46,675 nucleotides of DNA from Pyrinomonadaceae bacterium. GTDB taxonomy: Bacteria; Acidobacteriota; Blastocatellia; Pyrinomonadales; Pyrinomonadaceae. Below, piece after piece: positions 4,958-46,675 of the stretch. How positions within the stretch are numbered: position 1 is the first letter of the stretch; every line of letters starts with the position of its first letter. The notes under the pieces are model-generated. The model saw only the letters and a list, made by a program, of their open reading frames with translations, did not search any database and was not told the DNA's origin. The DNA is taken from contig DATEOJ010000205.1 in NCBI GenBank assembly GCA_035274235.1, positions 1 through 46,675 of the forward strand. Direction: 5' to 3'. The position numbers and the translations under genes are program-made.

Positions 4958-5068
4958 AAAGGCGTTTTGAACGCGGATCAGGCGGATCGAGCGAATCTGA
5001 AAAATATCTTCACGTGCTTCACCGCCCAAATCCGCTCGATCCGCCCCATCCGCGTTCAAAACGCCTTT
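4958..5068. repeat. long imperfect inverted repeat (about 37-nt arms, about 36-nt spacer) occupying most of the intergenic spacer
   Basis: Left arm 4958-4994 is AAAGGCGTTTTGAACGCGGATCAGGCGGATCGAGCGA. The reverse complement of 5031-5068 differs at about 4 positions. The arms contain 9-nt periodic (A/G)NGCGGATC units. Confidence 0.7.
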
Positions 5069-9348: not shown

Positions 9349-9413
9349 CTTTGCGAGCTTAGCGGGCTCTGCGTGAGAATAGATTTCACGCAGAGCCCGC
9401 CAAGCTCGCAAAG
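9349..9413. repeat. 28-bp-arm near-perfect inverted repeat (27/28) with a 9-nt loop
   Basis: CTTTGCGAGCTTAGCGGGCTCTGCGTGA (9349-9376), loop GAATAGATT, then TCACGCAGAGCCCGCCAAGCTCGCAAAG (9386-9413). It lies upstream of the ABC operon start. A related solo half (TTCACGCAAAGTCGCAAAGCCGCAAAG) sits at about 13073-13099. Confidence 0.75.
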
Positions 9414-9539: not shown

Positions 9540-12299
9540 TCATTCCGTTTTCTTTACGTCCTTATTTCCCATCGCGTTCATTAAAATATGCTGCATCTGA
9601 AAAGAATTCGGCAGACCGATCAAACTTGCCGGACTCAGACCGAACGCCCCACCCTCGGTGTTCGCAGCGATCGTGATGCGATCGCCTTGAGCGTAGGCAT
9701 AAGCGAGCGTCGGCGGAGCATTTACGTCAATCGACCCGAGTGCTTCGCTGGCCTTTGCATCGCCACCTGCGTTCTTCATCTTCTCAGCGAGCGGCCCGAC
9801 AAGCGGAGCGAGATCGTGATAGAAGATGGCCGAGAAATTCGTATTGCCATCCTGCGGCAGCGAACTCATGAATCTCGCCGATCGAACGAGGGTGTTGCCG
9901 GCTTCGCGATTGCTGATCGACTGCTCGAGCAACGCACGGCTCGGTCCGGCAATGAAATAACCGTTCGAATACGTGTAATGCACTTCGAGGCCCGTTTCGG
10001 ATCTGATCGAGTAGTAAGTGCGGTCACCCACTGCCGATTTCTCCAGCGCGAGTTTTCCCTTACCGTGAAGCATCGAGAACTGATTCAACTTATCAACCGC
10101 TTTCTCGAACGTGCCCTGCAGCTTTGGTTGGTCATAGACTTCGAGAATGATCTTCCACGAAGGAGTCGGAAGGATCGGACCGTCGATTGCGAACGCAAAC
10201 TCTCCGCCGAGCGGTGCCGCGAAATCGTTACGAAGATCGAAGCCCTGTTGCTTCTCGATAGCCTGCATCTGACTTCGAAGTTCGGGTTGGACAGTCTCCA
10301 TGAATCCGAGAAGATCGTCCGCGAGCAGTGCGGGTTCCTTGACCACGAAGGCGGTCGCAACGTTCGCGTTTGGTGAAATGAAATCCAATGCTCCCATCGA
10401 ACCCGGTGCTGCGAGCCACGATGCGATACCGTGATTCGATTCGCCGAACGTAAGGGCGGCACGAGTCAGGGTCTGACCGCCGACCGCTTTCTGTTCGACC
10501 ACGAAGTGCCGCAAGCTCGCGATGCCAAGCTGCGTTAAACCCTCGCGTCGCCGTGCGCCATCGGGTGTTTTATCTTCACGCATCGCGTTGGCGACGATCT
10601 TTTCCAGATCGGCTGCGACAACTAGTCCGGCACCGTCGGTGTAGATGTCGTTGATCCGCTGGTGGAACGGGGAAGTCACGAATCCATTTGAACCCGGCGT
10701 ATTCAGCGAGGTCGCGAACTTGCGGACCATCTCGATCTGCGGTGACGCGGCAAAGATGTCGTTATGGATCCAAACAAACAGCTCCGACTTACTCGCGGTG
10801 TTTTTCTCGCCGGCCGATTTCACCGGAGCCGGAGTCGTCGCCTTCGCAGTCATCGGATCGTCAATGATACGAACGTTCAGGCCGCCGCCGGATTCTTTCG
10901 CGAAACGATCCACCTGACCTTCGACGTAGGTCCGGAACGCGGTCGCGTCCTTAACTTCGCCCAACACGAGGACGCCACTGGGTTCACCCTTTACATTCAT
11001 TTCCGCAGTGACGACGATCTCGTCGCCCAACTGCGAACCAAACTTCTGGATTCGTGAGATGGTCTCTTCGTTGATTCCCACGCCGTCGCCATTGTTGCCT
11101 TTCCACCATTGCGCCAGCTCCGGATTCTGCTTTATCCGTTCCTGCATGAGCCGTTCCGACTCCGCAAGCGTCTCGCTTATATTCGGCAGAGCGGCGTAGA
11201 ACACGGTGTTCTCCGGTACGAGATCGACAAACCGCGAGGTGTAGCGAACGCCGGGACGTGCTGCGATCTTTTGGTTGACGTCGTGCCTCAATTTCGCGAG
11301 CTCCGAAACAAGATTCGCGTAACGGTTTGCGTTACGGCTCCATGCCACGCTCTGTGCGACCGAGGTCTTGTCGAGAGTCGGACTCGTCGTCGCCTGGTCG
11401 CCCGGAAGCAGCGTTTCGTCGTTGCGTCCGTGTTTTACTTTTACTTCTCCTTCTACAACAGAAACGCGCGAACCCTTGGTTCCGCTTTCGACTTCGAAGA
11501 TCGTGCCCTTCACGGAAACGAGCGAGTCGGGCGTCTGAACATAGAGTCGGCCATTGTGCTGCTTGGCGGCTTCGACGATCACGTCACCACGATCGAGGCG
11601 AACAGTCACGCCACGCATGTTTTCAGTTACGGCAAATTCAGACCGCTCCCGCATCTCGACCGACGAACCATCAGCGAGCCGCAGCACCGCATTCGAGTCT
11701 TTAGCCGTGCGAACGCGTTCGCCTTTCTGAACCTGTTCACCGACCGCGAGTGGACGCGTGAAGGCATCCGACATCACAAAAACCAATCCGTCTGCATTTT
11801 CGACGGTCGCCGCTAGCGTCGTACCGGACACGTCGAGACGTTCGTACGCAAACATTCCCACCAGTCCCAGGACGGCGACAAATGCCGCAGCGAAACTCCA
11901 ACGCATAACGCGAGGATTCCACCAGCCGGCACTTGCGGGGACCGCGGTGACCGGTGCGGTATTTGGTGCTCCGTTACGTTGAGCCGTCAGCTCGCGACGG
12001 CAGGGAATACACTCGTTCGAGTGGTCTTCCAGAAGAAGTGTGCGGGCTTTCGATAGTTCTCCGCTAACGTATGCCGGAATGAGCGATTGAAAATCGTCAC
12101 ATCCGCGAATTTGCTCGGTGGTGTTTGTAGCGTTCATTGTGTTCAGACCTTCCAGTTGTGAAATTTGGGGCTCCTGGCTGACGCGTGCCCATACTCGCAT
12201 TGCGGACTCATCGACGACCGATGAATCGATCTCTTCGTCGCGAATACCGCGCGTGATGTCGTCAATGATCGCGTCCAACTCTCGTTTACTGTGCTTCAT
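9540..12299 (-). CDS. large transmembrane anti-sigma factor (zf-HC2 + FecR domain + ~600-aa extracytoplasmic region)
   Basis: 919 aa with an H-x3-C-x2-C zinc motif (HSNECIPC), a single TM segment ([19 protein letters not shown]) and a FecR-like segment ([28 protein letters not shown]). It overlaps the sigma gene by 14 nt. Confidence 0.75.
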
Positions 12300-12930: not shown

Positions 12931-13125
12931 AAAACGTGACTTCTGCCGGATTATTAACAGTTAGGCAAAAATAATTTCAACGGGGATTTTATAGGAAGAT
13001 GAAGCGGAGTGGAGTATTTTTAAGCCGTTTCCGGTAATCGCGAGGTTTCTTGGCTCTGCCTGAAAACCTGTGTTCACGCAAAGTCGCAAAGCCGCAAAGA
13101 AAATCGAAGCCCCAACGGTCTAAAC

Positions 13126-13156
13126 AAAAACGACCGCCGAAATGGCGGTCGTTTTC
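13126..13156 (-). terminator. terminator hairpin downstream of tRNA-Pro (bidirectional shape)
   Basis: ACGACCGCC-GAAAT-GGCGGTCGT (13130-13152) is flanked by an A-run on the left and a T-run on the right. Confidence 0.7.
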
Positions 13157-13163
13157 TTGTTAA

Positions 13164-13240
<77 letters not shown>

Positions 13241-13255
13241 ATAATCAAGTACTAG

Positions 13256-13284
13256 AGTCTAGGTTACCAAGTTCGATATGTCAA
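13256..13284 (-). promoter_or_regulatory. sigma-70-like promoter for tRNA-Pro
   Basis: On the minus strand, TTGACA (13284-13279), a 17-nt spacer and TAGACT (13261-13256). The -10 element ends 15 nt before the mature tRNA 5' end. Confidence 0.55.
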
Positions 13285-13319
13285 AAGAACGTCAGAGGTC
13301 GTCTCTATATCCACACGAC

Positions 13320-13413
13320 CATTACAGAATTAGTAATTACCTCATTAGTAATTACACGCAGTAATCTTCCTCTCCATGTAATTACTAATGCGGTAATTAC
13401 TAATTTCGTAATG
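13320..13413. repeat. 37-nt-arm inverted repeat (34/37) built from GTAATTAC units, with a 20-nt spacer
   Basis: Left arm CATTACAGAATTAGTAATTACCTCATTAGTAATTACA (13320-13356). The reverse complement of 13377-13413 differs at 3 positions. The palindromic octamer GTAATTAC occurs four times. The repeat lies between the dedA stop (13421) and the tRNA-Pro promoter. Confidence 0.8.
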
Positions 13414-13420
13414 AGAAGTA

Positions 13421-14131
13421 CTACGAGACGGCCTTGTCTTCTTCGACAACGTTCTTCGGCTCGTGACTCTTGCCAAATCGATGTTTGAGAAACTCGATGA
13501 TCGGCGGCAGAAGAGATAAGAAGACAACGACGATGACGACCTTCTCGATGTGGTCTTCGAGCTTGATCCCGAGGGCCGACTCTATCACGCCGCCGAGGAA
13601 GTAGCCGCCGAGTACCATGCTCGAGATCCAAAGAGCTCCGCCGATTACGCTGAACGTCAGGAACTTTGCGTAAGGCATCTCGGCCGCACCGACTACTAGA
13701 GGTGCGAACGTGCGGACGATCGGAACGAAGCGAGCGAGAACGACAGTCTTGACGCCGTACTTTTCAAAGAAGTGCTTAGCCTTCTCAACCCGGCTTGGCT
13801 TGAAGAGAAACGAGCTTTCGCGATTGAAGAGCGTCTTGCCCATCATTCGTCCGGTCCAATAACCGGTGCTGTCACCGATGACCGAGCCGAGGAAAAACGC
13901 TAACAGGACCAGTCCGATCTGGAGTTTGCCGGCTGCGGCAAACAGACCGGCCACGACGAGCAGTGAATCGCCCGGCAGGAAGAAACCGACCGCCAGACCG
14001 GTCTCCGCGAAGACAATGAACCAGAGTCCGAGATAAACCCACGACCCCAACAACGCGAGAAGCCAGTCGATCAAGAATTTGGGATTCAGGTAGTCCTTGA
14101 TCTGATACAAAAAGTCGAGAATAGATTCCAT
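13421..14131 (-). CDS. DedA family membrane protein
   Basis: ORF trimmed to ATG 14131, because the longer ORF starts at TTG inside the repeat. The VFAETGLAVGFFLPGDSLLVVAG motif is typical of DedA/SNARE-associated proteins. Confidence 0.8.
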   Translation of the reverse strand: MESILDFLYQIKDYLNPKFLIDWLLALLGSWVYLGLWFIVFAETGLAVGFFLPGDSLLVVAGLFAAAGKLQIGLVLLAFFLGSVIGDSTGYWTGRMMGKTLFNRESSFLFKPSRVEKAKHFFEKYGVKTVVLARFVPIVRTFAPLVVGAAEMPYAKFLTFSVIGGALWISSMVLGGYFLGGVIESALGIKLEDHIEKVVIVVVFLSLLPPIIEFLKHRFGKSHEPKNVVEEDKAVS

Positions 14132-14136
14132 ACAAG

Positions 14137-14661
14137 AAAAGTAAAAAGTAAAAAGTAGAAAGTAAATTGGCAAATGCGACCAGCCTTTCCTACAAGACTG
14201 CCTACTTATTCTTCGACGTAACGATCCTCTTCGCTACGATTTTTGCAATCTCGCTTGATTCCTGCACCATTTGGAGGATGCCCGTCTTAGCCGCCGGTTT
14301 CAACGGTTCCGTCGCCAGGATCAATCGGAGCCAGAAATTGGATTCTCGCGCCTCCTTTAACGAGATTGCGTTCTTGTGAATAAAGTCGGCCCGACTTTGA
14401 CCCGCGACCGCTTCCTCCAGATTCGCTCCGATGGATGTGCCAGCGTCAAGGAGTTGGTTGATCACACTCCTGCTGACGTTGGTATGCTTTTCAAGGTATT
14501 TGCAGAGCTTAACGATCCTTACGGCGAAGGCGAATGCTCGCTCGGTAATTGGAACAAGCTTCGACGACGCGTGCTTACGAGTATTGGTGGGAGCCATACT
14601 CTCTTCCTCCTGCTGTTTCCTTTTTAAGTAATTTACTTTTTACTTTCTACTTTTTACTTTT
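14137..14661 (-). mobile_element. IVS-like cassette: four-helix-bundle ORF bounded by 32-bp terminal inverted repeats (30/32)
   Basis: IR-L 14137-14168 is AAAAGTAAAAAGTAAAAAGTAGAAAGTAAATT. The reverse complement of IR-R 14630-14661 is AAAAGTAAAAAGTAGAAAGTAAAAAGTAAATT. The unit fills the whole pcm-dedA spacer. Mobility is inferred, not shown. Confidence 0.45.
14202..14597 (-). CDS. four-helix-bundle protein (TIGR02436 / PF05635, 23S rRNA intervening-sequence protein family, Avd-like fold)
   Basis: 131 aa with a strong SD AGGAGGAAG before ATG 14597. The family signature QLLDAGTSIGANLEEAVAGQSRADFIHKNAISLKEARESNFWLRLI is present. Confidence 0.85.
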   Translation of the reverse strand: MAPTNTRKHASSKLVPITERAFAFAVRIVKLCKYLEKHTNVSRSVINQLLDAGTSIGANLEEAVAGQSRADFIHKNAISLKEARESNFWLRLILATEPLKPAAKTGILQMVQESSEIAKIVAKRIVTSKNK

Positions 14662-15343
14662 GGCTCTTTCCATCCCATCCATGGGTGCCGATCAGCGGTA
14701 CGAACGCACACGGACCGAAATTCTCCGTTGCATATCCTTTTTCACCGCGCGTTACGCGAATGAGCACCTGCGACTTTTGCTCCGGACCGACCGGGATCAC
14801 CATTCGTCCGCCGACCTCGAGTTGCTCGACCAGCGGTTGCGGGATGTCGGGGCCACCCGCTGCGACGAGGATCGCGTCGAACGGTGCGTAAACTTCCCAA
14901 CCGTTTGTCCCGTCGTCGCAGCGATATGAAATGTTTCGATATCCGAGTTGAAGCAGTTTCTGCTTGGCCTCCGCATGAAGGGAGGCGAGACGCTCGACCG
15001 CGAAGACTTTTCTCGCAACGGTCGCGAGTACGGCAGTTTGATATCCCGACCCGGATCCGATCTCGAGAATACGTTCACGACCCTTGAGCTCGAGCAGCTC
15101 CGTCATACGCGCGACGATGAACGGTTGCGATATCGTCTGGCCGCCGGAGATCGGCAGGGCGTTGTCTTTATAAGCCTGCGATCTGAGGGCGTCCGGTACA
15201 AAGGCATGACGCGGAACGCGGTTCATCGCATCGAGGACGCGTTCATCGGCGATCTTGTAATGCTTGCTGAGATGCTCGACCATCCGCGCACGCGGTATCT
15301 CGAAGCCATCTGAGCCATTAGGTTTTATCGCAAGACCGTTCAT
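14654..15343 (-). CDS. pcm: protein-L-isoaspartate O-methyltransferase
   Basis: SAM-binding motif ILEIGSGSGYQTAVLA and the conserved ISQPFIVARM. The start was trimmed out of the repeat to ATG 15343. ATG 15283 (MVEHL...) is an alternative start. Confidence 0.85.
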   Translation of the reverse strand: MNGLAIKPNGSDGFEIPRARMVEHLSKHYKIADERVLDAMNRVPRHAFVPDALRSQAYKDNALPISGGQTISQPFIVARMTELLELKGRERILEIGSGSGYQTAVLATVARKVFAVERLASLHAEAKQKLLQLGYRNISYRCDDGTNGWEVYAPFDAILVAAGGPDIPQPLVEQLEVGGRMVIPVGPEQKSQVLIRVTRGEKGYATENFGPCAFVPLIGTHGWDGKSQK

Positions 15344-15345
15344 TT

Positions 15346-15442
15346 GATTTTGGATTTTGGATTTTCGATTTTGGATTGTCGGAATCACATGTGCGCTATC
15401 GCATCGACGGAATCCAAAATCCAAAATCTAAAATCCAAAATC
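15346..15442. repeat. heptad-periodic (GATTTTG)n inverted repeat filling the surE-pcm spacer
   Basis: Left core 15346-15377 is GATTTTGGATTTTGGATTTTCGATTTTGGATT. The reverse complement of 15411-15442 matches at 30/32. About 33 nt separate the two 32-nt cores, with a short GTCG/CGAC pairing inside that interval. The right arm overlaps the surE stop, and the left arm ends 3 nt from pcm ATG 15343. Confidence 0.8.
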
Positions 15443-16187
15443 ACGCTTCCCAGTTCTTCATTGTATCGAGAGCCGCGTGGTTCGTCAGGTCGCTTCGCAT
15501 CGGTGTGACCGAGACATAACCTTCATCGACGGCTTCGAAGTCAGTTCCGCCTTCGGCACGGAAGCCTTCGCGGACTTCGCCGATCCAGTAGTAGGGCTTT
15601 CCGCGCGGGTCGATGTGTTCGCTGATCACAGGACGAGCTTCCTTAAAACCCTGCTTGGTTACGCGGATCCCGTTTGGAACGCCTTTTGGAATATTTACAT
15701 TGAGAAGCGTCCACGCGGGGATGCCTTCGGCCAGCGCTTTTCGTGTGACGTCGATCGCGACGCGTGCCGATTCGGTGAAGTCATGACTTCGGGATGCGAC
15801 GAGACTAAACGCGAGACCGGGGACGCCAAGGATCGTCGCTTCCATTGCTCCGGCGACAGTGCCGGAGTAGGTCGCATCGTCACCGAGATTCGCACCGTGG
15901 TTGATTCCAGACACGCATATGTCGGGAAGCGTGCCTTCGCCTAGGATGCGGTTGATCGCAAAAGTGACGCAGTCGGTCGGAGTGCCATCGACCGTCCAGT
16001 GACGATCGTCGATCTGACGAATTCGGAGTGGGCGTCCAAGCGTCAAACTGTGCGACGCTCCGCTCATCTCCGACTCCGGTGCGACGACATACACTTCTCC
16101 GATCTGCTTCATCGCCGCCTCGAGGGCCTCGATACCTTCGGAGTGTATGCCGTCGTCGTTTGTGATCAGGATGCGTGGTCGATCCAT
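15441..16187 (-). CDS. surE: 5'/3'-nucleotidase SurE
   Basis: N-terminal ILITNDDGIHSEGI signature. The start was trimmed out of the repeat-derived N-terminus to ATG 16187. This is the conserved surE-pcm gene pair. Confidence 0.9.
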   Translation of the reverse strand: MDRPRILITNDDGIHSEGIEALEAAMKQIGEVYVVAPESEMSGASHSLTLGRPLRIRQIDDRHWTVDGTPTDCVTFAINRILGEGTLPDICVSGINHGANLGDDATYSGTVAGAMEATILGVPGLAFSLVASRSHDFTESARVAIDVTRKALAEGIPAWTLLNVNIPKGVPNGIRVTKQGFKEARPVISEHIDPRGKPYYWIGEVREGFRAEGGTDFEAVDEGYVSVTPMRSDLTNHAALDTMKNWEA

Positions 16188-16204
16188 AGTGAAACAGTTT
16201 AAGA

Positions 16205-16313
16205 GTGAAAAAGTGAAAAGGTGAAAAGGTGAAAGAGTGAAAGGGAAAAAAGTAAAAGGTGGAAAGGTTAAGCAAAGCTTTTTCACCTTTCCACCTTTTC
16301 ACCTTTTCACTTT
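16205..16313. repeat. octamer-periodic (GTGAAAAG)n / (CACCTTTT)n inverted repeat filling the rpsU-surE spacer
   Basis: Left units lie at 16205-16253. A central perfect 15-bp stem AAAAGGTGGAAAGGT (16254-16268) / ACCTTTCCACCTTTT (16285-16299) is followed by right units to 16313, ending 2 nt before the rpsU stop codon. Confidence 0.75.
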
Positions 16314-16315
16314 AG

Positions 16316-16558
16316 TTACCGGCTGCTCGGTCCACCGCCCATCGGACGCGGTCCCGTGTTCATCGGTCGCTGCTGACGGAAGCGTCGGCGGTTTCGCTTA
16401 CGAGCGTTTACCGACTTGAGCTTCGCCTTCTGACCCGGCGGGATGAAGTGAGCATGTTTCTTCAGGTCCTTGATGATCTCTTCGCTGATCACCTTACGTT
16501 TGAACCGGCGCAGTGCGCTTTCGATCGATTCATTCGCATTAACTGTTATATAAGCCAT
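16316..16558 (-). CDS. rpsU: 30S ribosomal protein bS21 (with a basic Gly/Pro-rich C-terminal tail)
   Basis: MAYITVNANESIESALRRFKRKV... is the canonical S21 N-terminus. SD GGAGGTG lies upstream. Confidence 0.9.
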   Translation of the reverse strand: MAYITVNANESIESALRRFKRKVISEEIIKDLKKHAHFIPPGQKAKLKSVNARKRNRRRFRQQRPMNTGPRPMGGGPSSR

Positions 16559-20557: not shown

Positions 20558-22306
20558 CTAGCTGCGCAGACTGATCGCACTCGTCATCAGAAGGCTGACA
20601 AGGTCGATGTCGCCGCCCCGGTCGACATAAAACTCATCGTCTCCCTGAAGACCATCGTTGTAGCCCATCTCATAGCCTTCGCTAAAGTATCGCCGACAAT
20701 CGCCGATGCTCGACGAGTAAGGATCGTAGACCGCCTGGTCGTACACATAAGGATCCGAGTAATACTCGTCGCCCCATCCACGCCGGCGGGCTGCCTCGCC
20801 TTCGAGGAGACCCTGATAGTATCCGGTGCTCAAAGAGCGTTGGATCAACTCGGCACCGAGTCCGCCCGAGTAGAGCGTGACCATGTCGTTGTACGGGAAC
20901 GTTGGATATCCAACGTAATCGTACGGGGCACCGTAGTTCGAGTACTGGTCATAACCGTAGTACGCGGCCGGTTCGTAGTACGTGTAGCTCGGTGTATTAC
21001 CAAACGTGTAATACGGTTCCTGATACCTATACTGCGGAATGTAGCCGTAGTAACCGTTGTCGTTATAAGACGTGTAACGCGGATACGGATCGTAATAGCC
21101 AACATTATCGCCATTGGAGAAGAACGCAGCTATCACGCTTCGGAAGAGAAGGCCCTTCCAGTCTAAGCCGCCGCCATACCCGTAATACGGCTGATCGTAA
21201 ACGTACGACCGATAGATCGGGAACGTGTCCGGATAGTAGTAGTCGTACGCCGTATACGCCGGCGTGTACACGTTGTAATAACCGAATCGATCGTAGTCCG
21301 AATAGTCATCGCCGAAATACACGTTCACGGTTCTGGAATCGTAGTAATACGTCTGACCGTTACCGTAGTAGTAAGGCTGAACGTTCGAGTAGTAATACGG
21401 CTGAACATTCGGGACGTAGTTCCAGTCGCGGGTTCGATAGACGTCGCCGAACGATTGCTGGTTCCGAAGGCCCGTATAGTAGCCGAGCTCCTCGCGTTCA
21501 AAGGCCCTGCTATCGAGGCGCTGCTGCTTGTGTTCGAACTTCCGCGAATCGCGATCAAAGCGCTGAGCTCTTACCGCGTCGCCGTACTGTCTCGCGTCAT
21601 TGGTAAAGTCTCGTCGAACCGGACCCATATTGGCATCCGGCTGAACACGTACGCGTTGTTGTCGGTCCGACTGATTCCAGTTACGCGGCTGACGCTCGAC
21701 CTGACGGATATCGCGCTGCTGCATCTGCCGGCGTGCATTCATTTGCTGCTCGCGTTGGTTATTCTGCCATTGCGGCATTTGCTGACGTCGCGCGTTCTGC
21801 TGTTGTTGACGCTGATCCATCTGCTGGCGTCGAGCATTTACCTGCTGCTGGCGCAGGATATTCTGCCCTCGGTCCATCTGCTGACGTCGCGCGTTCTGCT
21901 GTTGCTGGCGTTGGTTGTTCTGCCACTGGTCCATCTGCTGACGTCGCGCGTTTTGCTGCTGGCGCTCGTTGATCTGCCGCTGCTGCATCTGCTGTTGACG
22001 CTGCACGTGAACCTGTTGCTGACGCTGAACCTGCTGTTGTTGCCGCTGCACCTGCATCTGCTGGCGCTGCGCTCCACCACCACCGCCACGATCCTGGCGC
22101 TGCTGAGGTTGCGGTTGCTGTCTGACGTGTCCTTGACCACCACCGCCACCGCCCGTCGGGCGCTGTTGCTGTGCTGGAGGACCGCCACCGCGACCGCCTC
22201 CGCCACCACCGCCTTTGCCCTTACCCTGGGCAAACGAAGACCCGGCGAACAACATCGCAAGAGCGAAAACCGAAATAGCTTTAATAAGAAAAAATTGAGA
22301 TCGCAT
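20558..22306 (-). CDS. secreted low-complexity protein: poly-Gly, Gln/Arg tandem repeats, then a Tyr-rich C-terminal half
   Basis: 582 aa with SD GGGGAGG before ATG 22306 and a signal peptide (ISVFALAMLFAGSSFAQ). Runs of G6-7 are followed by five NARRQQM(D/P)QWQNNQRQQQQ-like units, then a long region rich in YY/YYY (VQPYYYSNVQPYYYGNGQTYYY...). Confidence 0.75.
   Translation of the reverse strand: MRSQFFLIKAISVFALAMLFAGSSFAQGKGKGGGGGGGRGGGPPAQQQRPTGGGGGGQGHVRQQPQPQQRQDRGGGGGAQRQQMQVQRQQQQVQRQQQVHVQRQQQMQQRQINERQQQNARRQQMDQWQNNQRQQQQNARRQQMDRGQNILRQQQVNARRQQMDQRQQQQNARRQQMPQWQNNQREQQMNARRQMQQRDIRQVERQPRNWNQSDRQQRVRVQPDANMGPVRRDFTNDARQYGDAVRAQRFDRDSRKFEHKQQRLDSRAFEREELGYYTGLRNQQSFGDVYRTRDWNYVPNVQPYYYSNVQPYYYGNGQTYYYDSRTVNVYFGDDYSDYDRFGYYNVYTPAYTAYDYYYPDTFPIYRSYVYDQPYYGYGGGLDWKGLLFRSVIAAFFSNGDNVGYYDPYPRYTSYNDNGYYGYIPQYRYQEPYYTFGNTPSYTYYEPAAYYGYDQYSNYGAPYDYVGYPTFPYNDMVTLYSGGLGAELIQRSLSTGYYQGLLEGEAARRRGWGDEYYSDPYVYDQAVYDPYSSSIGDCRRYFSEGYEMGYNDGLQGDDEFYVDRGGDIDLVSLLMTSAISLRS
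21716..21952 (-). repeat. in-frame tandem coding repeats (about 57 nt / 19 aa, 4-5 copies) inside 20558..22306
   Basis: The DNA motif CCATCTGCTGACGTCGCGCGTT(C/T)TGCTG recurs. The protein level shows NARRQQMDQWQNNQRQQQQ / NARRQQMDRGQNILRQQQV / NARRQQMDQRQQQQ / NARRQQMPQWQNNQREQQM / NARRQMQQRD. Confidence 0.75.
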
Positions 22307-23534: not shown

Positions 23535-24317
23535 ATGGCAACAGCAAAAAAATCCGCGGCGAAGAAGACCGCGGCGAAGAAACCGGCGGCTAAAAAACCC
23601 GCAGCAAAAAAAGCAGCTGCAAAGAAACCCGCAGCAAAAAAAGTAGCTGCTAAGAAACCGGCAGCAAAGAAGGCGGCGGCAAAGAAACCAGCTGCGAAGA
23701 AACCGGCTGCAAAGAAAGCGTCGGCGAAGAAACCGGTCGCAAAGAAAGCAGCGGCAAAGAAGCCAGCAGCAAAGAAGCCGGCGGCAAAAAAGCCGGCGGC
23801 TAAGAAGGCGACTGCAAAGAAAGCCACGGCGAAAAAGCCCGCGGCGAAAAAGACAGTTGCAAAGAAGCCGGCAGCGAAGAAAACGTCTGCTAAGGCATCG
23901 GTGAAGAAACCGGCGGCGAAGAAAGCAACGGCCGTAAAAGCGAAGACGGCACCGAAGGCCACTGCAAAGAAAGCGCCGGCGAAAAAGACGACACCTGTCG
24001 CTGCAAAGAAGAAGACCACCTCGCCAAAGTCGGCGGCAAAGAAAAAGACTACCGTCGTGAAGACGACGTCCGCTCCAAAGGCGAAGGCTCCCGCTCGACG
24101 TAAGCCGGCAGCTAAAACGATCGTAAGTAAAGCGGTCGAAACGATCACTGAGGTCGCGCAGGGCGCTGCGGCAGGTGCAGCCGTCGGAGCTCTCCACGGC
24201 GTGGCGACGACAGTTGAAGCGATCATCGCTCCGTCAACTCCGGAAGCAGAAACGACAGGCGAGCCTGAAGTGGCATCGTCGGAAACAAGCGAAGAAACAG
24301 AAACGGCGACCAATTAG
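23535..24317 (+). CDS. histone H1-like Lys/Ala-repeat protein with a distinct Ala/Gly/Val-rich and acidic C-terminus
   Basis: 260 aa with SD GGAGGA. About 170 aa of (A)AKKPAAKK repeats are followed by [31 protein letters not shown] and an acidic tail [18 protein letters not shown]. Confidence 0.75.
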
Positions 24318-32867: not shown

Positions 32868-32952
32868 AGAAGTAGCTCCTTTTCGATTGAATTGATCAGA
32901 CTGTGCGCGAAATATGACACACTTTCGGGAAGGCGACAAGGCGCGGGCGTTC

Positions 32953-33048
32953 GTTGATCGTGGTTCGTTGTTCGTTGTTCGTGGGGCGGTGGTTTATTGT
33001 TTGTGGTTCGGTCCACCAACGATCAACGAACGACGAACTACGATCAAC
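32953..33048. repeat. heptad-periodic (GTTCGTT)n inverted repeat in the spacer before the TMEM175 gene
   Basis: Left arm 32953-32984 is GTTGATCGTGGTTCGTTGTTCGTTGTTCGTGG. The reverse complement of 33013-33048 is GTTGATCGTAGTTCGTCGTTCGTTGATCGTTGGTGG (about 28/32). Confidence 0.7.
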
Positions 33049-33072
33049 TAACCCCCTGCTATAATCCCACCC

Positions 33073-33660
33073 ATGAAATCTACCCGACTCGAAGCATTCT
33101 CCGACGCAGTGATCGCGATCATCATGACGATCCTCGTACTGGAGCTAAAAATCCCTCACGATACCGGGCTCGCTGCACTTCAGCCATTAATTCCGGTCTT
33201 CCTGACTTACGTGATGAGCTTCGTCTACCTCGGGATCTACTGGAACAATCACCATCACATGTTTCAAGCGACCGAGAGCGTGAACGGCAAGGTCCTTTGG
33301 GCGAACATGCATTTGTTGTTCTGGCTGTCGCTTGTTCCGTTCGTGACAGGATGGATGGGTGAGAACCACTTCGCTCCTCTGCCGACCGCCTTCTATGGCG
33401 TAGTCCTTCTCTGTGCGGCGATCGCGTACACGATCTTGCAGACCGCCATCGTCAAACATCACGACGGAAAAAACGCATTGCTTGCGCAGGCGGTCGGGAA
33501 CGACTGGAAGGGAAAGATCTCGATCGTGATGTATATCATCGCGATCGGTTCGGCGTTTCTACACCAGTGGATCTCACATGCGCTATACGCGGCTGTCGCA
33601 ATAATGTGGCTGGTACCGGATAGCCGGATCGAGAAGCGGATGGCGAAACAGGAAGGATGA
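33073..33660 (+). CDS. TMEM175-family potassium channel (DUF1211)
   Basis: The N-terminal RLEAFSDAVIAIIMTILVLEL signature helix is present, with six TM segments in 195 aa. Confidence 0.85.
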   Translation: MKSTRLEAFSDAVIAIIMTILVLELKIPHDTGLAALQPLIPVFLTYVMSFVYLGIYWNNHHHMFQATESVNGKVLWANMHLLFWLSLVPFVTGWMGENHFAPLPTAFYGVVLLCAAIAYTILQTAIVKHHDGKNALLAQAVGNDWKGKISIVMYIIAIGSAFLHQWISHALYAAVAIMWLVPDSRIEKRMAKQEG

Positions 33661-33680
33661 GGGGATGAAGGATGAACGAT

Positions 33681-33724
33681 GCGGCATCGATGGCTCGAGA
33701 GAGTTGCGCGATGATCGATGCCGC
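33681..33724. terminator. 11-bp-stem hairpin between convergent genes
   Basis: GCGGCATCGAT-N22-ATCGATGCCGC. There is no clear T-tract. Confidence 0.4.
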
Positions 33725-38826: not shown

Positions 38827-39162
38827 ATGAAGCCACTATTTCACCCGGGTGCGGATGACATTACGGTCGAGGGAATCTTACATGCGTTGTCTGACCCGGT
38901 TCGCGTCGCAATCTTTGCCCACATCGCCGATTCGGATGACTCGCATAAGTGCGTTGCATTCGCCACGGTCGGCGAGAAGGACATTCCGAAGTCGACACTC
39001 TCGCAGCACTTCAAGGCGCTTCGCGAAGCAGGACTGATCCGCAGCGAACGTCAGGGCGTCGAGATGCGCAACACCTCACGATGTACCGAGGTCAACAAGA
39101 AGTTTCCGGGCCTCTTACCGGCGATCATCGCAGCGCATAAGACTCAGAAGAAGAAAAAGTAA
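38827..39162 (+). CDS. ArsR/SmtB family winged-helix transcriptional regulator
   Basis: LHALSDPVRVAIFAHI ... KSTLSQHFKALREAGLIRSERQG matches the ArsR HTH pattern. Confidence 0.8.
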   Translation: MKPLFHPGADDITVEGILHALSDPVRVAIFAHIADSDDSHKCVAFATVGEKDIPKSTLSQHFKALREAGLIRSERQGVEMRNTSRCTEVNKKFPGLLPAIIAAHKTQKKKK

Positions 39163-39171
39163 ACGGTAGAC

Positions 39172-39239
39172 GAGAGACAAGAGACAAGAGACAGGAACCG
39201 CATCGAGGGGTTTCTCTCTTGTCTCTTGTCTCTTGTCTC
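39172..39239. repeat. heptad-periodic (GAGACAA)n inverted repeat between convergent genes
   Basis: A perfect 20-bp stem pairs 39174-39193 (GAGACAAGAGACAAGAGACA) with 39220-39239 (TGTCTCTTGTCTCTTGTCTC), with a 26-nt loop. Confidence 0.8.
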
Positions 39240-39250
39240 CCGTCCCCTCT

Positions 39251-39868
39251 CTACCTCTTCCCCTTCCCCTCGAAATCATCAGGCTTGAACTCAGCAAACG
39301 TGATCAAACCAAAATCCTTTGGCGGTGTTGAGACATGCCGCTTCTCGGTTCGCTTCGGATCAAGCGCGTGAAAATTGGTTTCCTCGACTCGCACTAGCTG
39401 CCATGTGCGATCGCGACGGGAGTAATCGAACGTGTAGTCGTAGGCCCAACGCGAGTTGCTTCCACCATAGTTAGAAACCGTGAACTTCGTCCCGCGGATC
39501 GCCACGCCAGCGAACGGATCGCCAAACACACCGCCGCAATTCTTACACATCGCGACAAGATCGTTCCGTCCCGCAACTGATAGCACACCTTTGCTATCGC
39601 GAATAAGAATCAACACCGAGCGCTCGCCGGCACCTTCTTCGTATGGCGCGTCCTGCGCGACGAAGTCACTCACGACCAGGATCAGATCCTTCTGTCCATC
39701 GTTGTTCAGGTCGCCCGTCTCGAGTGCGATCGGTATCCGATCCTTTTCGACAAACGGTTTGACGTCATCCGGGATCTTTACCGCATCCTGCGCCACGACC
39801 ACTGCCGGGAGCAGCGCGAGCACAAGGGCGAAGTTCGTGAGTCGGTGACTAAATGTATGTTCAAACAT
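39251..39868 (-). CDS. secreted hypothetical protein with an FG-GAP/VCBS-like motif
   Basis: 205 aa with a signal peptide (FALVLALLPAVVVAQ) and the motif TGDLNNDGQKDLILVV. Confidence 0.6.
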   Translation of the reverse strand: MFEHTFSHRLTNFALVLALLPAVVVAQDAVKIPDDVKPFVEKDRIPIALETGDLNNDGQKDLILVVSDFVAQDAPYEEGAGERSVLILIRDSKGVLSVAGRNDLVAMCKNCGGVFGDPFAGVAIRGTKFTVSNYGGSNSRWAYDYTFDYSRRDRTWQLVRVEETNFHALDPKRTEKRHVSTPPKDFGLITFAEFKPDDFEGKGKR

Positions 39869-45654: not shown

Positions 45655-46014
45655 TCTAAACCTCCTCTGCGGGGGTGAGGCGGTTTCAACTTCGGCAGTA
45701 CAACTCCGCCAAAAGCTGCGACCGGTCTAGTTGTTGGGTGAACGCGGGCATTCTATCAGGTAAACGTGGGAAGTCAATTTAATTCTTTAAACAAGAACAA
45801 CCGAGTTTTGCATGCCGTTGCGTACACGCCGAGATCTCGTATGCCTTTGCGTCGACACGGGTCGGCACTCGGCGACTTCACGAGTCAGATATCTCGCTTG
45901 CGCTTGTGACGCTTCTCTGCGAACGAATTTGCACGCGATCGCTCGCGCTGCGGATCGGCGTAACAGCCGGCAGCATTTAGAGAGCCTCGGGGCGGAACCG
46001 TTAGTTCCGGCGGA

Positions 46015-46064
46015 CGACAAACTTTAGTTTGTCGCTTCCGGGAGCGAACAAACTAAAGTTTGTT
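46015..46064. repeat. two adjacent perfect palindromes sharing the core ACAAACT-NN-AGTTTGT
   Basis: CGACAAACT-TT-AGTTTGTCG (46015-46034) and AACAAACT-AA-AGTTTGTT (46047-46064). Each is preceded by TTCCGG(C/G). Confidence 0.7.
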
Positions 46065-46074
46065 TTCCGAACGT

Positions 46075-46103
46075 AAAAAGCCCGCGATCGCTCGCGGGCT
46101 TTT
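46075..46103 (-). terminator. Rho-independent terminator of the radical SAM gene
   Basis: The minus strand reads AAAAGCCCGCGA-GCGA-TCGCGGGCTTTTT, 29 nt after the stop at 46132. Confidence 0.75.
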
Positions 46104-46131
46104 CTACTGACTTCTGAATTCTGGCTTCTGA

Positions 46132-46675
46132 CTATTCAGCCACCGCCATTTCCTTGTCCTTCGACTTCTTCAAACCACCGATCTGGACGAGGTTGTCGCC
46201 CTTGATCTGGTTTTTCTCGAGGACCATCTGGTTGTAGAGTTTGCGCATCATCTGCATCTCTTCAGCAGCGGTCTTCGGACCTTCCATCTCCGGTTTGTTC
46301 GGACGTGTAAGGTCAACCTGGTTCAGCACGAGGTTGTGCGACTGATCGCCGAGTTCAACTTCCTTGCCGCGTGCGAAAACTTCGTGACGGCCGTGATCTT
46401 TGTACCACTGTGCGACGGTCGCGTTCTGGTGCATGTGCTCGATGATATTTCTCCAACCGATACCAGTGTTGTATGCACAGAACGAGATCTCGCCTTCCTG
46501 CGTGCCGTACGGGATGATGCACATCTCGGTGCGGCGGAAGTCGTAGTTGAAAAGATCCTGGAACCACATGCCTGCGATGAACAGGAAGTTCCACGGGTCC
46601 TGACGACGCTTCTCGATATCTTCAGCGGTACGATCCGGACCAACCTTTCCGTAGTCCTTACCCGACAGACCAAAT
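46132..46675 (-). CDS. radical SAM protein, COG1964 / tetraether-synthase (Tes)-like family, C-terminal fragment (gene continues beyond the right edge)
   Basis: The frame is open from the window edge to stop 46132. The motif FIAGMWFQDLFNYDFRRTEMCIIPYGTQEGEISFCAYNTGIGWRNIIE matches the C-terminal signature I associate with COG1964 radical SAM enzymes. Confidence 0.6.
   Translation of the reverse strand, partial: FGLSGKDYGKVGPDRTAEDIEKRRQDPWNFLFIAGMWFQDLFNYDFRRTEMCIIPYGTQEGEISFCAYNTGIGWRNIIEHMHQNATVAQWYKDHGRHEVFARGKEVELGDQSHNLVLNQVDLTRPNKPEMEGPKTAAEEMQMMRKLYNQMVLEKNQIKGDNLVQIGGLKKSKDKEMAVAE

Follow-up and report, generated by a model that had tools for sequence, protein, structure and literature searches.

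The window analysed here is a stretch of 46,675 nt (positions 1 to 46,675 of contig DATEOJ010000205.1) from a Pyrinomonadaceae bacterium. On its minus strand lies the gene string rpsU-surE-pcm-4HB-dedA-tRNA-Pro, in which 4HB denotes a gene for a four-helix-bundle protein, and stem-loops occupy five spacers in a row (13241-16315); an earlier reading made without database searches (the sequence-only reading) had reported four consecutive spacers of this string. The explanation that we favour, with moderate confidence, is that these are spacer stem-loops whose arms are inverted arrays of 7-9-nt modules and that they have two sources, namely amplification of hairpins in place and a cassette consisting of the 4HB gene and its own inverted arms. 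Spacer hairpins in this soil acidobacterium look like a widespread and largely undescribed kind of insertion between genes that does not break them.

Inverted module arrays in the gene spacers

When Pfam, NCBIfam and ARAGORN were applied to the window, the genes of the string were identified as S21, SurE, PCMT, 23S_rRNA_IVP/TIGR02436, VTT/DedA and tRNA-Pro(CGG). The features of the string are listed below in the order of transcription.

16316..16558, minus strand: rpsU (ribosomal protein S21), Pfam match
16204..16313, minus strand: rpsU-surE hairpin, arms of 31-34 nt, 91 % complementary, 8-nt unit GTGAAAAG; z = -8.2
15441..16187, minus strand: surE, Pfam match; true start ATG 16187 according to homologue alignments
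15345..15443, minus strand: surE-pcm hairpin, (GATTTTG)n / (CAAAATC)n, T-rich arm first; z = -5.7
14654..15343, minus strand: pcm, Pfam match; true start ATG 15343 according to homologue alignments
14632..14661, minus strand: 5' arm of the 4HB cassette, (AAAAGTA)x4.3, holding the pcm stop codon (14654-14656)
14202..14597, minus strand: 4HB gene (PF05635 / TIGR02436, S23p family), cargo in the loop, identified by profile matches
14137..14166, minus strand: 3' arm of the 4HB cassette, (TTTACTT)x4.3 on the plus strand, ending 5 nt before the dedA ATG (14131)
13421..14131, minus strand: dedA / VTT-domain gene, Pfam match; true start ATG 14131 according to homologue alignments
13320..13413, minus strand: dedA-tRNA-Pro hairpin, ATTAGTAATTAC-type units, 42-nt arms, 88 % complementary; z = -9.0
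13256..13284, minus strand: promoter-like site TTGACA-17-TAGACT, 5' of tRNA-Pro, consensus match only
13164..13240, minus strand: tRNA-Pro (CGG), ARAGORN

Inverted repeats were searched for with an ungapped scan (match +1, mismatch -2, loop <=80). Besides the arms of the 4HB cassette, seven short-loop inverted repeats with scores of 23-30 were observed. When the window was shuffled with its dinucleotides preserved (n=100), the shuffles contained on average 0 elements with a score >=20, and the best element scored 16. The elements fold as RNA into stems of 28-45 bp with energies of -44 to -80 kcal/mol (z = -5.7 to -12.8). A rough gene map of the window gave about 35 spacers of >=40 nt and an intergenic share of 12.9 %, and the location of the elements is intergenic in 8/8 cases (chance about 8e-8).

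All four repeats that the sequence-only reading had placed in the string were present (16204-16313, 15345-15443, 14137-14166/14632-14661 and 13320-13413), as were the four that it had placed elsewhere (4958-5068, 9349-9413, 32945-33056 and 39147-39266). Their loops span 9-46 nt and not 9-36 nt as given there. Its view that the class is set by architecture and not by sequence was borne out, the hairpin sequences being essentially unique within the window with the exception of the cassette arms. When the window was compared with Rfam at E <= 1, no curated family was found and the hairpins gave only sub-threshold look-alikes of eukaryotic miRNA precursors. A consensus terminator scan of the window flagged no hairpin, and a U-tail is lacking at 15345-15443 and 9349-9413. 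The mechanical open reading frames (ORFs) of surE, pcm and dedA begin at 16286, 15424 and 14173, within or beside the repeats, and homologues align from the later ATGs listed above. The N-termini are inflated, as had been suspected, and annotators should be warned that ORF callers extend these three genes into repeats.

The relatives of SurE assign the window to the Pyrinomonadaceae (Acidobacteriota, Blastocatellia). For comparison, about 50 related Pyrinomonadaceae loci (designated here by L numbers) were used, each with up to 10 kb on either side, and 80 metagenomic loci encoding relatives of the 4HB protein were collected. The gene order rpsU-surE-pcm-dedA-tRNA-Pro is conserved across the related loci. 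L172, on a 46,703-bp contig of another sample, covers the region with 99.85 % identity, and L081 is the closest other species (Pcm 92 % identical). The synonymous divergence (dS) of pcm and dedA between the window and L081, L001 and L002 is 1.3-3.6. Synonymous sites are saturated at these values, and therefore spacer features common to the window and its closest relatives have been maintained and not merely inherited.

A periodic hairpin was defined by an inverted-repeat score >=18 and an arm autocorrelation >=0.75. The numbers of periodic hairpins per 10 kb were as follows.

Window: 0.86
Pyrinomonadaceae, 721 kb: 0.19
Around metagenomic 4HB genes, 438 kb: 0.14
Other Acidobacteriota, 114 kb: 0
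Outgroups, 338 kb: 0

Outside the window, 19/20 periodic hairpins have a period of 7. The number of hairpins per 20 kb was 0 in L006, L008, L009, L012 and others, and L050 contains seven inverted repeats in 20 kb, of which five are periodic.

Since the hairpins are palindromic and intergenic, they might be multicopy elements similar to repetitive extragenic palindromes and bacterial interspersed mosaic elements (REP/BIME) or miniature inverted-repeat transposable elements (MITEs), spread in trans by a transposase (RAYT or IS200/605-type). Recurrence of the GGATTTT and GGGATTT units at different spacers (L027 and L001) and of a non-periodic, GGTCAGAACCGGGAGCGATAGCGACCGGGTTC-like palindrome (L007 502-581, L038 1358-1456 and L055 6518-6605) would agree with this. 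We nevertheless consider it quite improbable, because the 13-mers of the hairpins are essentially unrepeated outside their own element in the 46.7-kb window (cassette arms excepted), no transposase-like Pfam match was obtained for the 20 window proteins scanned (most hairpin-adjoining genes included), and orthologous hairpins are vertically inherited and diverge in place. The GGTCAGAACCGGGAGCGATAGCGACCGGGTTC-like palindrome of the three acidobacterial genomes has the appearance of a genuine REP-type family and is separate from the periodic hairpins.

Over 8,245 nt, L172 and the window differ by 10 SNPs and by 0 changes in any hairpin. The arms are also identical in L083-L091, which are nine samples of one strain. 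As near-identical strains show no change in unit number, slippage must be slow on that timescale. These data bear on the explanation that the arrays are phase-variable contingency loci, in which the unit number of a simple sequence repeat (SSR) switches the expression of the neighbouring gene. Tandem 7-8-nt arrays do stand directly 5' of start codons, their unit numbers differ between species, and heptamer number varies among Coxiella strains (PMC4990558). Against this, no unit changed relative to the 99.85%-identical strain or among the nine samples of the other strain, and the neighbours are housekeeping genes. It can hardly be the explanation.

Orthologous spacers along the string

In most relatives, the rpsU-surE spacer contains a canonical terminator (GCGTGA...TCACGC, then a T-run) or a one-unit hairpin (AAAGTGAAAAGG-loop-CCTTTTCACTTTTTT). 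When the units of the 5'+3' halves were counted in the roughly 50 relatives, 1+1 was observed in eight lineages, followed by 2+1 to 2+2, and larger arrays were found in L009 (3+2), L001 (3+4), the window (4+8) and L173 (about 4+13). The hairpin of the window is asymmetric, with 4 GTGAAAAG-type units in the 5' arm and 8 CTTTTCAC-type units in the 3' array. Its arms can pair in >=5 registers, in agreement with the earlier proposal that periodic arms pair in several. The proximal register, which is the first formed in transcription, consists of a 15-bp stem followed by UUACUUUUUU.

Given the orthologous terminators and the graded unit series, the rpsU-surE hairpin appears to be an expanded form of the rpsU intrinsic terminator, in which an 8-nt "stem plus A/U-tract" module was tandemly duplicated in both arms. 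From 1+1 to 4+13, the spacers provide a clean natural series for the growth of a terminator hairpin by module duplication. Of the two mechanisms that the sequence-only reading had suggested, slippage plus hairpin selection is directly visible in this series and no evidence was found for a structure-specific enzyme.

In the case of the surE-pcm junction, most relatives have no hairpin, and the stop of surE and the start of pcm are adjacent (TAA-ATG, 0-4 nt). Exactly between the two genes, a hairpin of 80-140 nt is found in the window, L081, L001 and L002. In the window it has 33-nt arms (94 % complementary, unit GATTTTG x4.6); the stem begins with the 3 nt of the surE stop TGA (15441-15443), and 1 nt separates its end from the pcm ATG (15343). 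The orthologues differ in unit (GGATTTT, GGGATTT and CGATTTT), each 3' arm fits its own 5' arm, and the loops are unalignable among the four. The alignments indicate that the hairpin is an insertion placed exactly between an ancestrally abutting stop and start, and that its arms, unlike its loops, persist over saturated synonymous divergence. This junction is also a hot spot for insertion, as inserts of 0.9-2.6 kb replace the hairpin in L085/L086, L020, L032, L173 and L175. In L085/L086 they carry a Ser/Thr kinase gene together with small ORFs; those of L173/L175 carry an antisense ORF of 135-137 aa.

The dedA-tRNA-Pro hairpin sits between the dedA stop (13421) and the promoter-like site of tRNA-Pro. 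The spacer is about 40 nt in L007 and L011, and contains a hairpin of about 95 nt with a species-specific unit in the genus of the window; unrelated heptamer hairpins are found in L081 (CGCGAAA) and L001 (GGGATTT). Directly 3' of tRNA-Pro, L081 has a very asymmetric periodic hairpin at 11423-11550, composed of (GCAGAAA)x3, a loop, (CTTTCTG)x12 and then (TTTCAAA)x3. The window counterpart is an ordinary terminator (13127-13155).

For 9349-9413 and the other distant hairpins, no orthologous spacers were found in the fetched loci, in which synteny 3' of tRNA-Pro is not conserved.

The 4HB cassette and the polarity of arms

The arms at 14632-14661 and 14137-14166 are complementary and enclose the 4HB ORF, which has its own GGAGG 8 nt 5' of the start codon. 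The protein scored 57.8 bits with the Pfam profile (cut-off 33.8) and 69.4 bits with TIGR02436 (cut-off 24), and matched PDB 2RLD by sequence with an E-value of 4.8e-19. Its AlphaFold2 model has four helices (mean pLDDT 90.4), and Foldseek placed it closest to the S23p-family structures 2RLD (E = 2e-7, TM 0.76/0.91) and 2GSC, then to Avd. Intact orthologues show a ratio of nonsynonymous to synonymous divergence (dN/dS) of 0.04-0.11, which indicates purifying selection. In L172, the gene has a 2-bp deletion (window 14295-14296), and the frameshift leaves a truncated product of 102 aa. Either the cargo gene is beginning to decay there or the assembly is wrong at this point.

When the flanks of PF05635 genes from metagenomes and relatives were compared with each other, inverted heptamer arms were found for 62/75 genes (83 %; flank-to-flank score >=14, nearly all of period 7), whereas 0.6 % of the control genes of the same loci (n=175) reached a score of 14 (median 7). 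Units include AAAAGTA, AAAAGGC, GAATTTA/GAATTGA, GAATGCA, GAATGTT and GGAATTT. Three outcomes had been named beforehand as speaking against the sequence-only reading, namely repeats no more frequent in spacers than in shuffled sequence, repeats confined to this locus and no association with 4HB genes. None of them was observed.

In all 26 cassettes that have an adjacent upstream gene, this gene was co-oriented and its stop lay between -23 and +22 nt relative to where the 5' arm begins. The hosts are diverse housekeeping genes and include atpD-like, fabA/Z-like and fabG-like genes, pdxA, PALP/PLP enzymes, acyl-CoA dehydrogenase, HMG-CoA reductase and a planctomycete PSD1 protein. A Shine-Dalgarno sequence is not universal (only 21/70 cassettes, start codons being uncertain). 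A search of the 1.29 Mb of fetched loci with a hidden Markov model (HMM) made from 120 homologues returned only cassettes that were already known, and Rfam found no rRNA in the window or at 20 cassette loci. In the cassette stems, 45 mismatches are G.U-compatible vs 28 of the A.C type (p = 0.06). The idea that the heptamer arms provide stop codons in all three frames was dropped, as the GAATGCA and AAAAGGC units contain no stop codon.

Different states of the pcm-dedA junction were observed among the relatives. The cassette is intact in the window, L081, L083-L091 (one clonal strain, e.g. L085), L092 and L093, and the AAAAGTA 5' arm of the window is also present in L081, L085, L092 and L093. 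In L025, a 4HB gene with an internal deletion lies inside GTAAAAC arms; L001 has both arms and no gene, with a weak fold (z = -1.2); L041 and L028 have a solo 3' arm, (TTTTACT)n. Many relatives (L007, L009, L011, L014 and L026) have empty junctions of 3-18 nt, typically TGG-AAG-TAA then ATG. Other heptamer hairpins (GAGAATG, GATAGGT, GTTGCGG and GTCCAAA) are found at this junction in other lineages. The compared junctions indicate that decay of the cassette yields cargo-less hairpins.

Where the cassette is present, pcm gains 4-8 C-terminal codons and ends with AAG-TAA within the first arm unit (14654-14680). Since empty junctions end with TGG-AAG-TAA, the stop of the ancestral junction stood in a context similar to the arm unit AAAAGTA, and this likeness could reflect seeding or a target preference.

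The four hairpins outside the string are listed below.

4958..5068, no strand assigned: hairpin of 42 bp, inner stem of 9-nt GCGGATCNN units, U-rich tails on both strands; z = -11.7
9349..9413, no strand assigned: hairpin of 28 bp with weak 9-nt periodicity (CTNNGCGNG), no U-tract; z = -12.8
32945..33056, no strand assigned: hairpin with GTTCGTT/GATCGTG heptamer arms, T-rich arm first, divergent genes on either side
39147..39266, no strand assigned: hairpin with AGACAAG heptamer arms, core 39163-39243, A-rich arm first

The genes flanking the hairpin at 39147-39266 are convergent and it overlaps both of their stop codons.

A hairpin with the A-rich arm first (A-first) or the T-rich arm first (T-first) shows this order on either strand, which makes polarity a property of the element itself. 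Accordingly, the notion that arm polarity reflects gene orientation was dropped, polarity being unchanged by reverse complementation. In the window, the surE-pcm hairpin and 32945-33056 are T-first. Cassettes are A-first in 55 cases and T-first in 3, and cargo-less periodic hairpins in 13 and 10, respectively (Fisher p = 1e-4). Therefore, decay of cassettes cannot explain all hairpins.

The distribution weighs on the explanation in which each cargo-less hairpin is a 4HB cassette minus its gene. The intermediates (L001 and L025) and solo arms (L041 and L028) of the pcm-dedA junction fit it, as do the GAATGGT units of the L046 and L049 hairpins, which recur in the cassette arms of L135 and L161. 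We consider it improbable as a general account: the rpsU-surE hairpin appears to derive from a terminator by unit amplification, T-first arms make up 10/23 of the cargo-less periodic hairpins vs 3/58 of the cassettes, hairpins outnumber 4HB genes 7:1 in the window, and about 720 kb of surE neighbourhoods of relatives contain no 4HB gene except for the L025 remnant. The sequence-only reading had offered the hairpins as cargo-less relatives of a cassette like the intervening sequences (IVSs) of rRNA genes. This was upheld in part, by the states of the pcm-dedA junction and the 83 % vs 0.6 % association, and failed for the rpsU-surE element, which appears to be an expanded terminator, and with respect to polarity.

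Other repeats were also observed in the window. Solo arrays with no inverted partner are (CGCAAAGN)x3 at 13077-13099, 3' of the tRNA-Pro terminator, (GAAGGAT)x4 at 33652-33681, at the 3' end of a TMEM175-like gene, and (CTGACTT)x4 at 46107-46133, which adjoins a canonical terminator; these three may be decayed half-hairpins. At 46011-46105, a 22-bp palindrome (ACAAACTAAAGTTTGT core) precedes the canonical terminator at 46078-46103, and the Rfam Leu_leader match in this interval is sub-threshold (41 bits vs a gathering score of 50) and probably spurious. An array with periods of 15/30/45 nt (GCAAAGAAACCGGCGGCAAAGAAGCCCGCG, about 11 copies) at 23544-23882 lies within an ORF that has no Pfam match and probably encodes an Ala/Lys-rich repetitive protein. 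A 582-aa ORF (20558-22306), also with no Pfam match, contains tandem repeats of 57 nt x3.3 (21810-21994) and 24 nt x3 (21341-21411).

Origin of the hairpins and comparison with known systems

According to the two-source reading, ordinary hairpins grow in place when the modules of both arms are tandemly duplicated, for which the rpsU terminator is the clearest case. Because periodic arms pair in many registers, gain or loss of a unit in one arm would spare the stem, so arrays could grow. The arms are perhaps homogenised by quasipalindrome template-switching, which is a known mutational pathway, and slippage in the arms together with such switching between them would explain the concerted change of units.

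The cassette lodges co-directionally between the stop of one gene and the start of the next, and as it is dispersed it is presumably mobile. Through internal deletion it loses its gene and becomes a cargo-less hairpin, then a solo arm. The stem would close the insert and bring the upstream stop and downstream start together again at the base of the helix, so that the operon would put up with it in the same way as an rRNA helix does with an IVS; the ancestral junction may keep its coupling in this way. By analogy with the Coxiella IVS, for which cleavage was demonstrated by experiment, stems of 28-45 bp are predicted substrates of RNase III. Cleavage would free the mRNA of 4HB and punctuate the rpsU-surE-pcm-4HB-dedA transcript. 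A-first hairpins, which are laid out like bidirectional terminators, may also act as terminators. T-first hairpins should be unable to terminate on either strand, which would fit the read-through needed from surE into pcm.

Several points weigh against the two-source reading. Unit numbers do not differ between near-identical strains (L172 vs the window; L083-L091). When filled and empty junctions were compared, no target-site duplication was found, and there is no transposase among the 20 window proteins scanned. Orthologues are included among the 26 co-oriented cassettes, so the independent insertions are fewer. As a test of selection at the RNA level, the G.U excess is weak (45 vs 28). RNase III cleavage, termination and translational coupling are steps that we infer. 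Finally, the reading does not account for how the T-first hairpins (surE-pcm and 32945-33056) arose, cassettes being 55:3 A-first.

In another explanation, the hairpins are neutral by-products at the DNA level, made by heptamer slippage and quasipalindrome template-switching, which would accumulate in spacers only because they do no harm there and would play no part in RNA processing, termination or coupling. The units differ between sites, even at one spacer in sister lineages, and the two sides of an array can be unequal (4 vs 8 units in the window; in L081, 3 vs 12 after tRNA-Pro). Cargo-less hairpins occur in both polarities, many relatives are free of hairpins (0 in 20 kb in L006, L008, L009, L012 and others), and the G.U bias is not significant. 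However, the arms have outlasted saturated dS and the loops have not, the hairpins fit exactly between stop and start, and the rpsU-surE element keeps a functional-looking terminator register. In addition, the co-orientation of 26/26 cassettes with the upstream gene points to a constraint on the transcript. We therefore regard neutral origin as a serious but rather unlikely explanation.

A broader proposal, which we put forward tentatively, is that a PF05635 gene with inverted heptamer arrays constitutes a widespread mobile "operon intervening sequence", of which the 23S IVSs would be a special case. In several phyla, such an element would insert between the stop of one housekeeping gene and the start of the next in the same transcript, be removed or neutralised at the RNA level by stem closure and RNase III, and decay to the cargo-less periodic hairpins that are scattered over these genomes. 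Its Avd-like protein may bind the periodic stem, or may enlist a reverse transcriptase in trans by which the element would spread through RNA. If this is true, bacteria possess mRNA inserts that are structurally similar to self-splicing ones.

To our knowledge, IVS elements have for 35 years counted as an oddity of rRNA genes, and there is no agreement on where they come from or what they do. The same gene-plus-stem design is also present in ordinary operons, at stop codons, in many environmental lineages, where it decays to lasting hairpins. Part of the long intergenic palindromes of some phyla, which have had no explanation, would thereby gain an origin that can be tested, together with a simple rule of tolerance, in which the stem re-joins stop and start. 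For the function of the very common PF05635 protein, the heptamer stem gives a concrete lead as a consistent, putative RNA or DNA partner.

The components are known, namely IVSs with an S23p ORF and heptamers, an excess of heptamer SSRs, terminators and REP-like palindromes. In a limited literature search, we found no description of near-universal inverted heptamer arms of PF05635 genes outside rRNA, of the co-directional lodging of cassettes at stop codons of housekeeping operons, of a decay series to cargo-less hairpins or of terminator growth by module duplication. In the same search TIGR02436 had no match, and PF05635 was matched only in the context of a review of diversity-generating retroelements (DGRs).

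As compared with Rho-independent terminators, the rpsU-surE element is orthologous to canonical rpsU terminators and its proximal register keeps the stem and U-rich tail, and A-first hairpins show an A-tract, stem and U-tract on both strands. They differ in that the stems here are 30-45 bp and composed of amplified 7-8-nt modules, and T-first hairpins (surE-pcm) have no U-tail on either strand. REP/BIME elements, which are thought to affect mRNA stability, and MITEs are likewise intergenic imperfect palindromes, often within operons, but the hairpins of the window have internally periodic arms and neither a shared consensus nor an evident target-site duplication.

Intergenic heptanucleotide repeats are also known from cyanobacteria as short tandemly repeated repetitive (STRR) sequences. 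For the TAACTGA repeats of Beggiatoaceae and heptamer SSRs, slippage was proposed as the source (PMC4679880). In these systems (STRR, TAACTGA and heptamer SSR excess), as here, tandem 7-nt units are concentrated in spacers; most of them, however, repeat one unit or a few units directly throughout the genome, whereas each site of the window has its own unit, which pairs with its reverse complement as a hairpin.

In the early mRNA of phage T7, RNase III cuts intercistronic hairpins to give separate mRNAs with protective 3' stems. The analogy is functional only, as T7 sites are not made of tandem modules and cleavage of the present hairpins is a prediction. Avd of DGRs belongs to the same Pfam family and has the same fold (Foldseek 4DWL and 8UB7, target-normalised TM about 0.7). 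Sequence identity is 13-17 %, the window has no template repeat or variable repeat, no reverse-transcriptase domain was found among the window proteins scanned, and the neighbours of the 4HB gene are pcm and dedA.

The 23S IVSs of Coxiella burnetii and Leptospira resemble the 4HB cassette in the terminal-inverted-repeat stem of about 28-30 bp, the 4HB ORF in the loop, the tandem heptamers in the arm, the proneness of the ORF to decay and the closure of the stem that makes the insertion tolerable. In Coxiella, the stem is 28 bp with an S23p ORF in the loop, the number of tandem GACAGAT heptamers varies among strains, the IVS is excised by RNase III, which cuts within the stem at the first repeat, and the ORF is decaying (PMC4990558). 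In contrast, the cassette described here lies between pcm and dedA of an mRNA operon and not in helix 25 or 45 of 23S rRNA, purifying selection acts on its ORF, whose Shine-Dalgarno sequence is strong, and the neighbouring spacers contain cargo-less versions.

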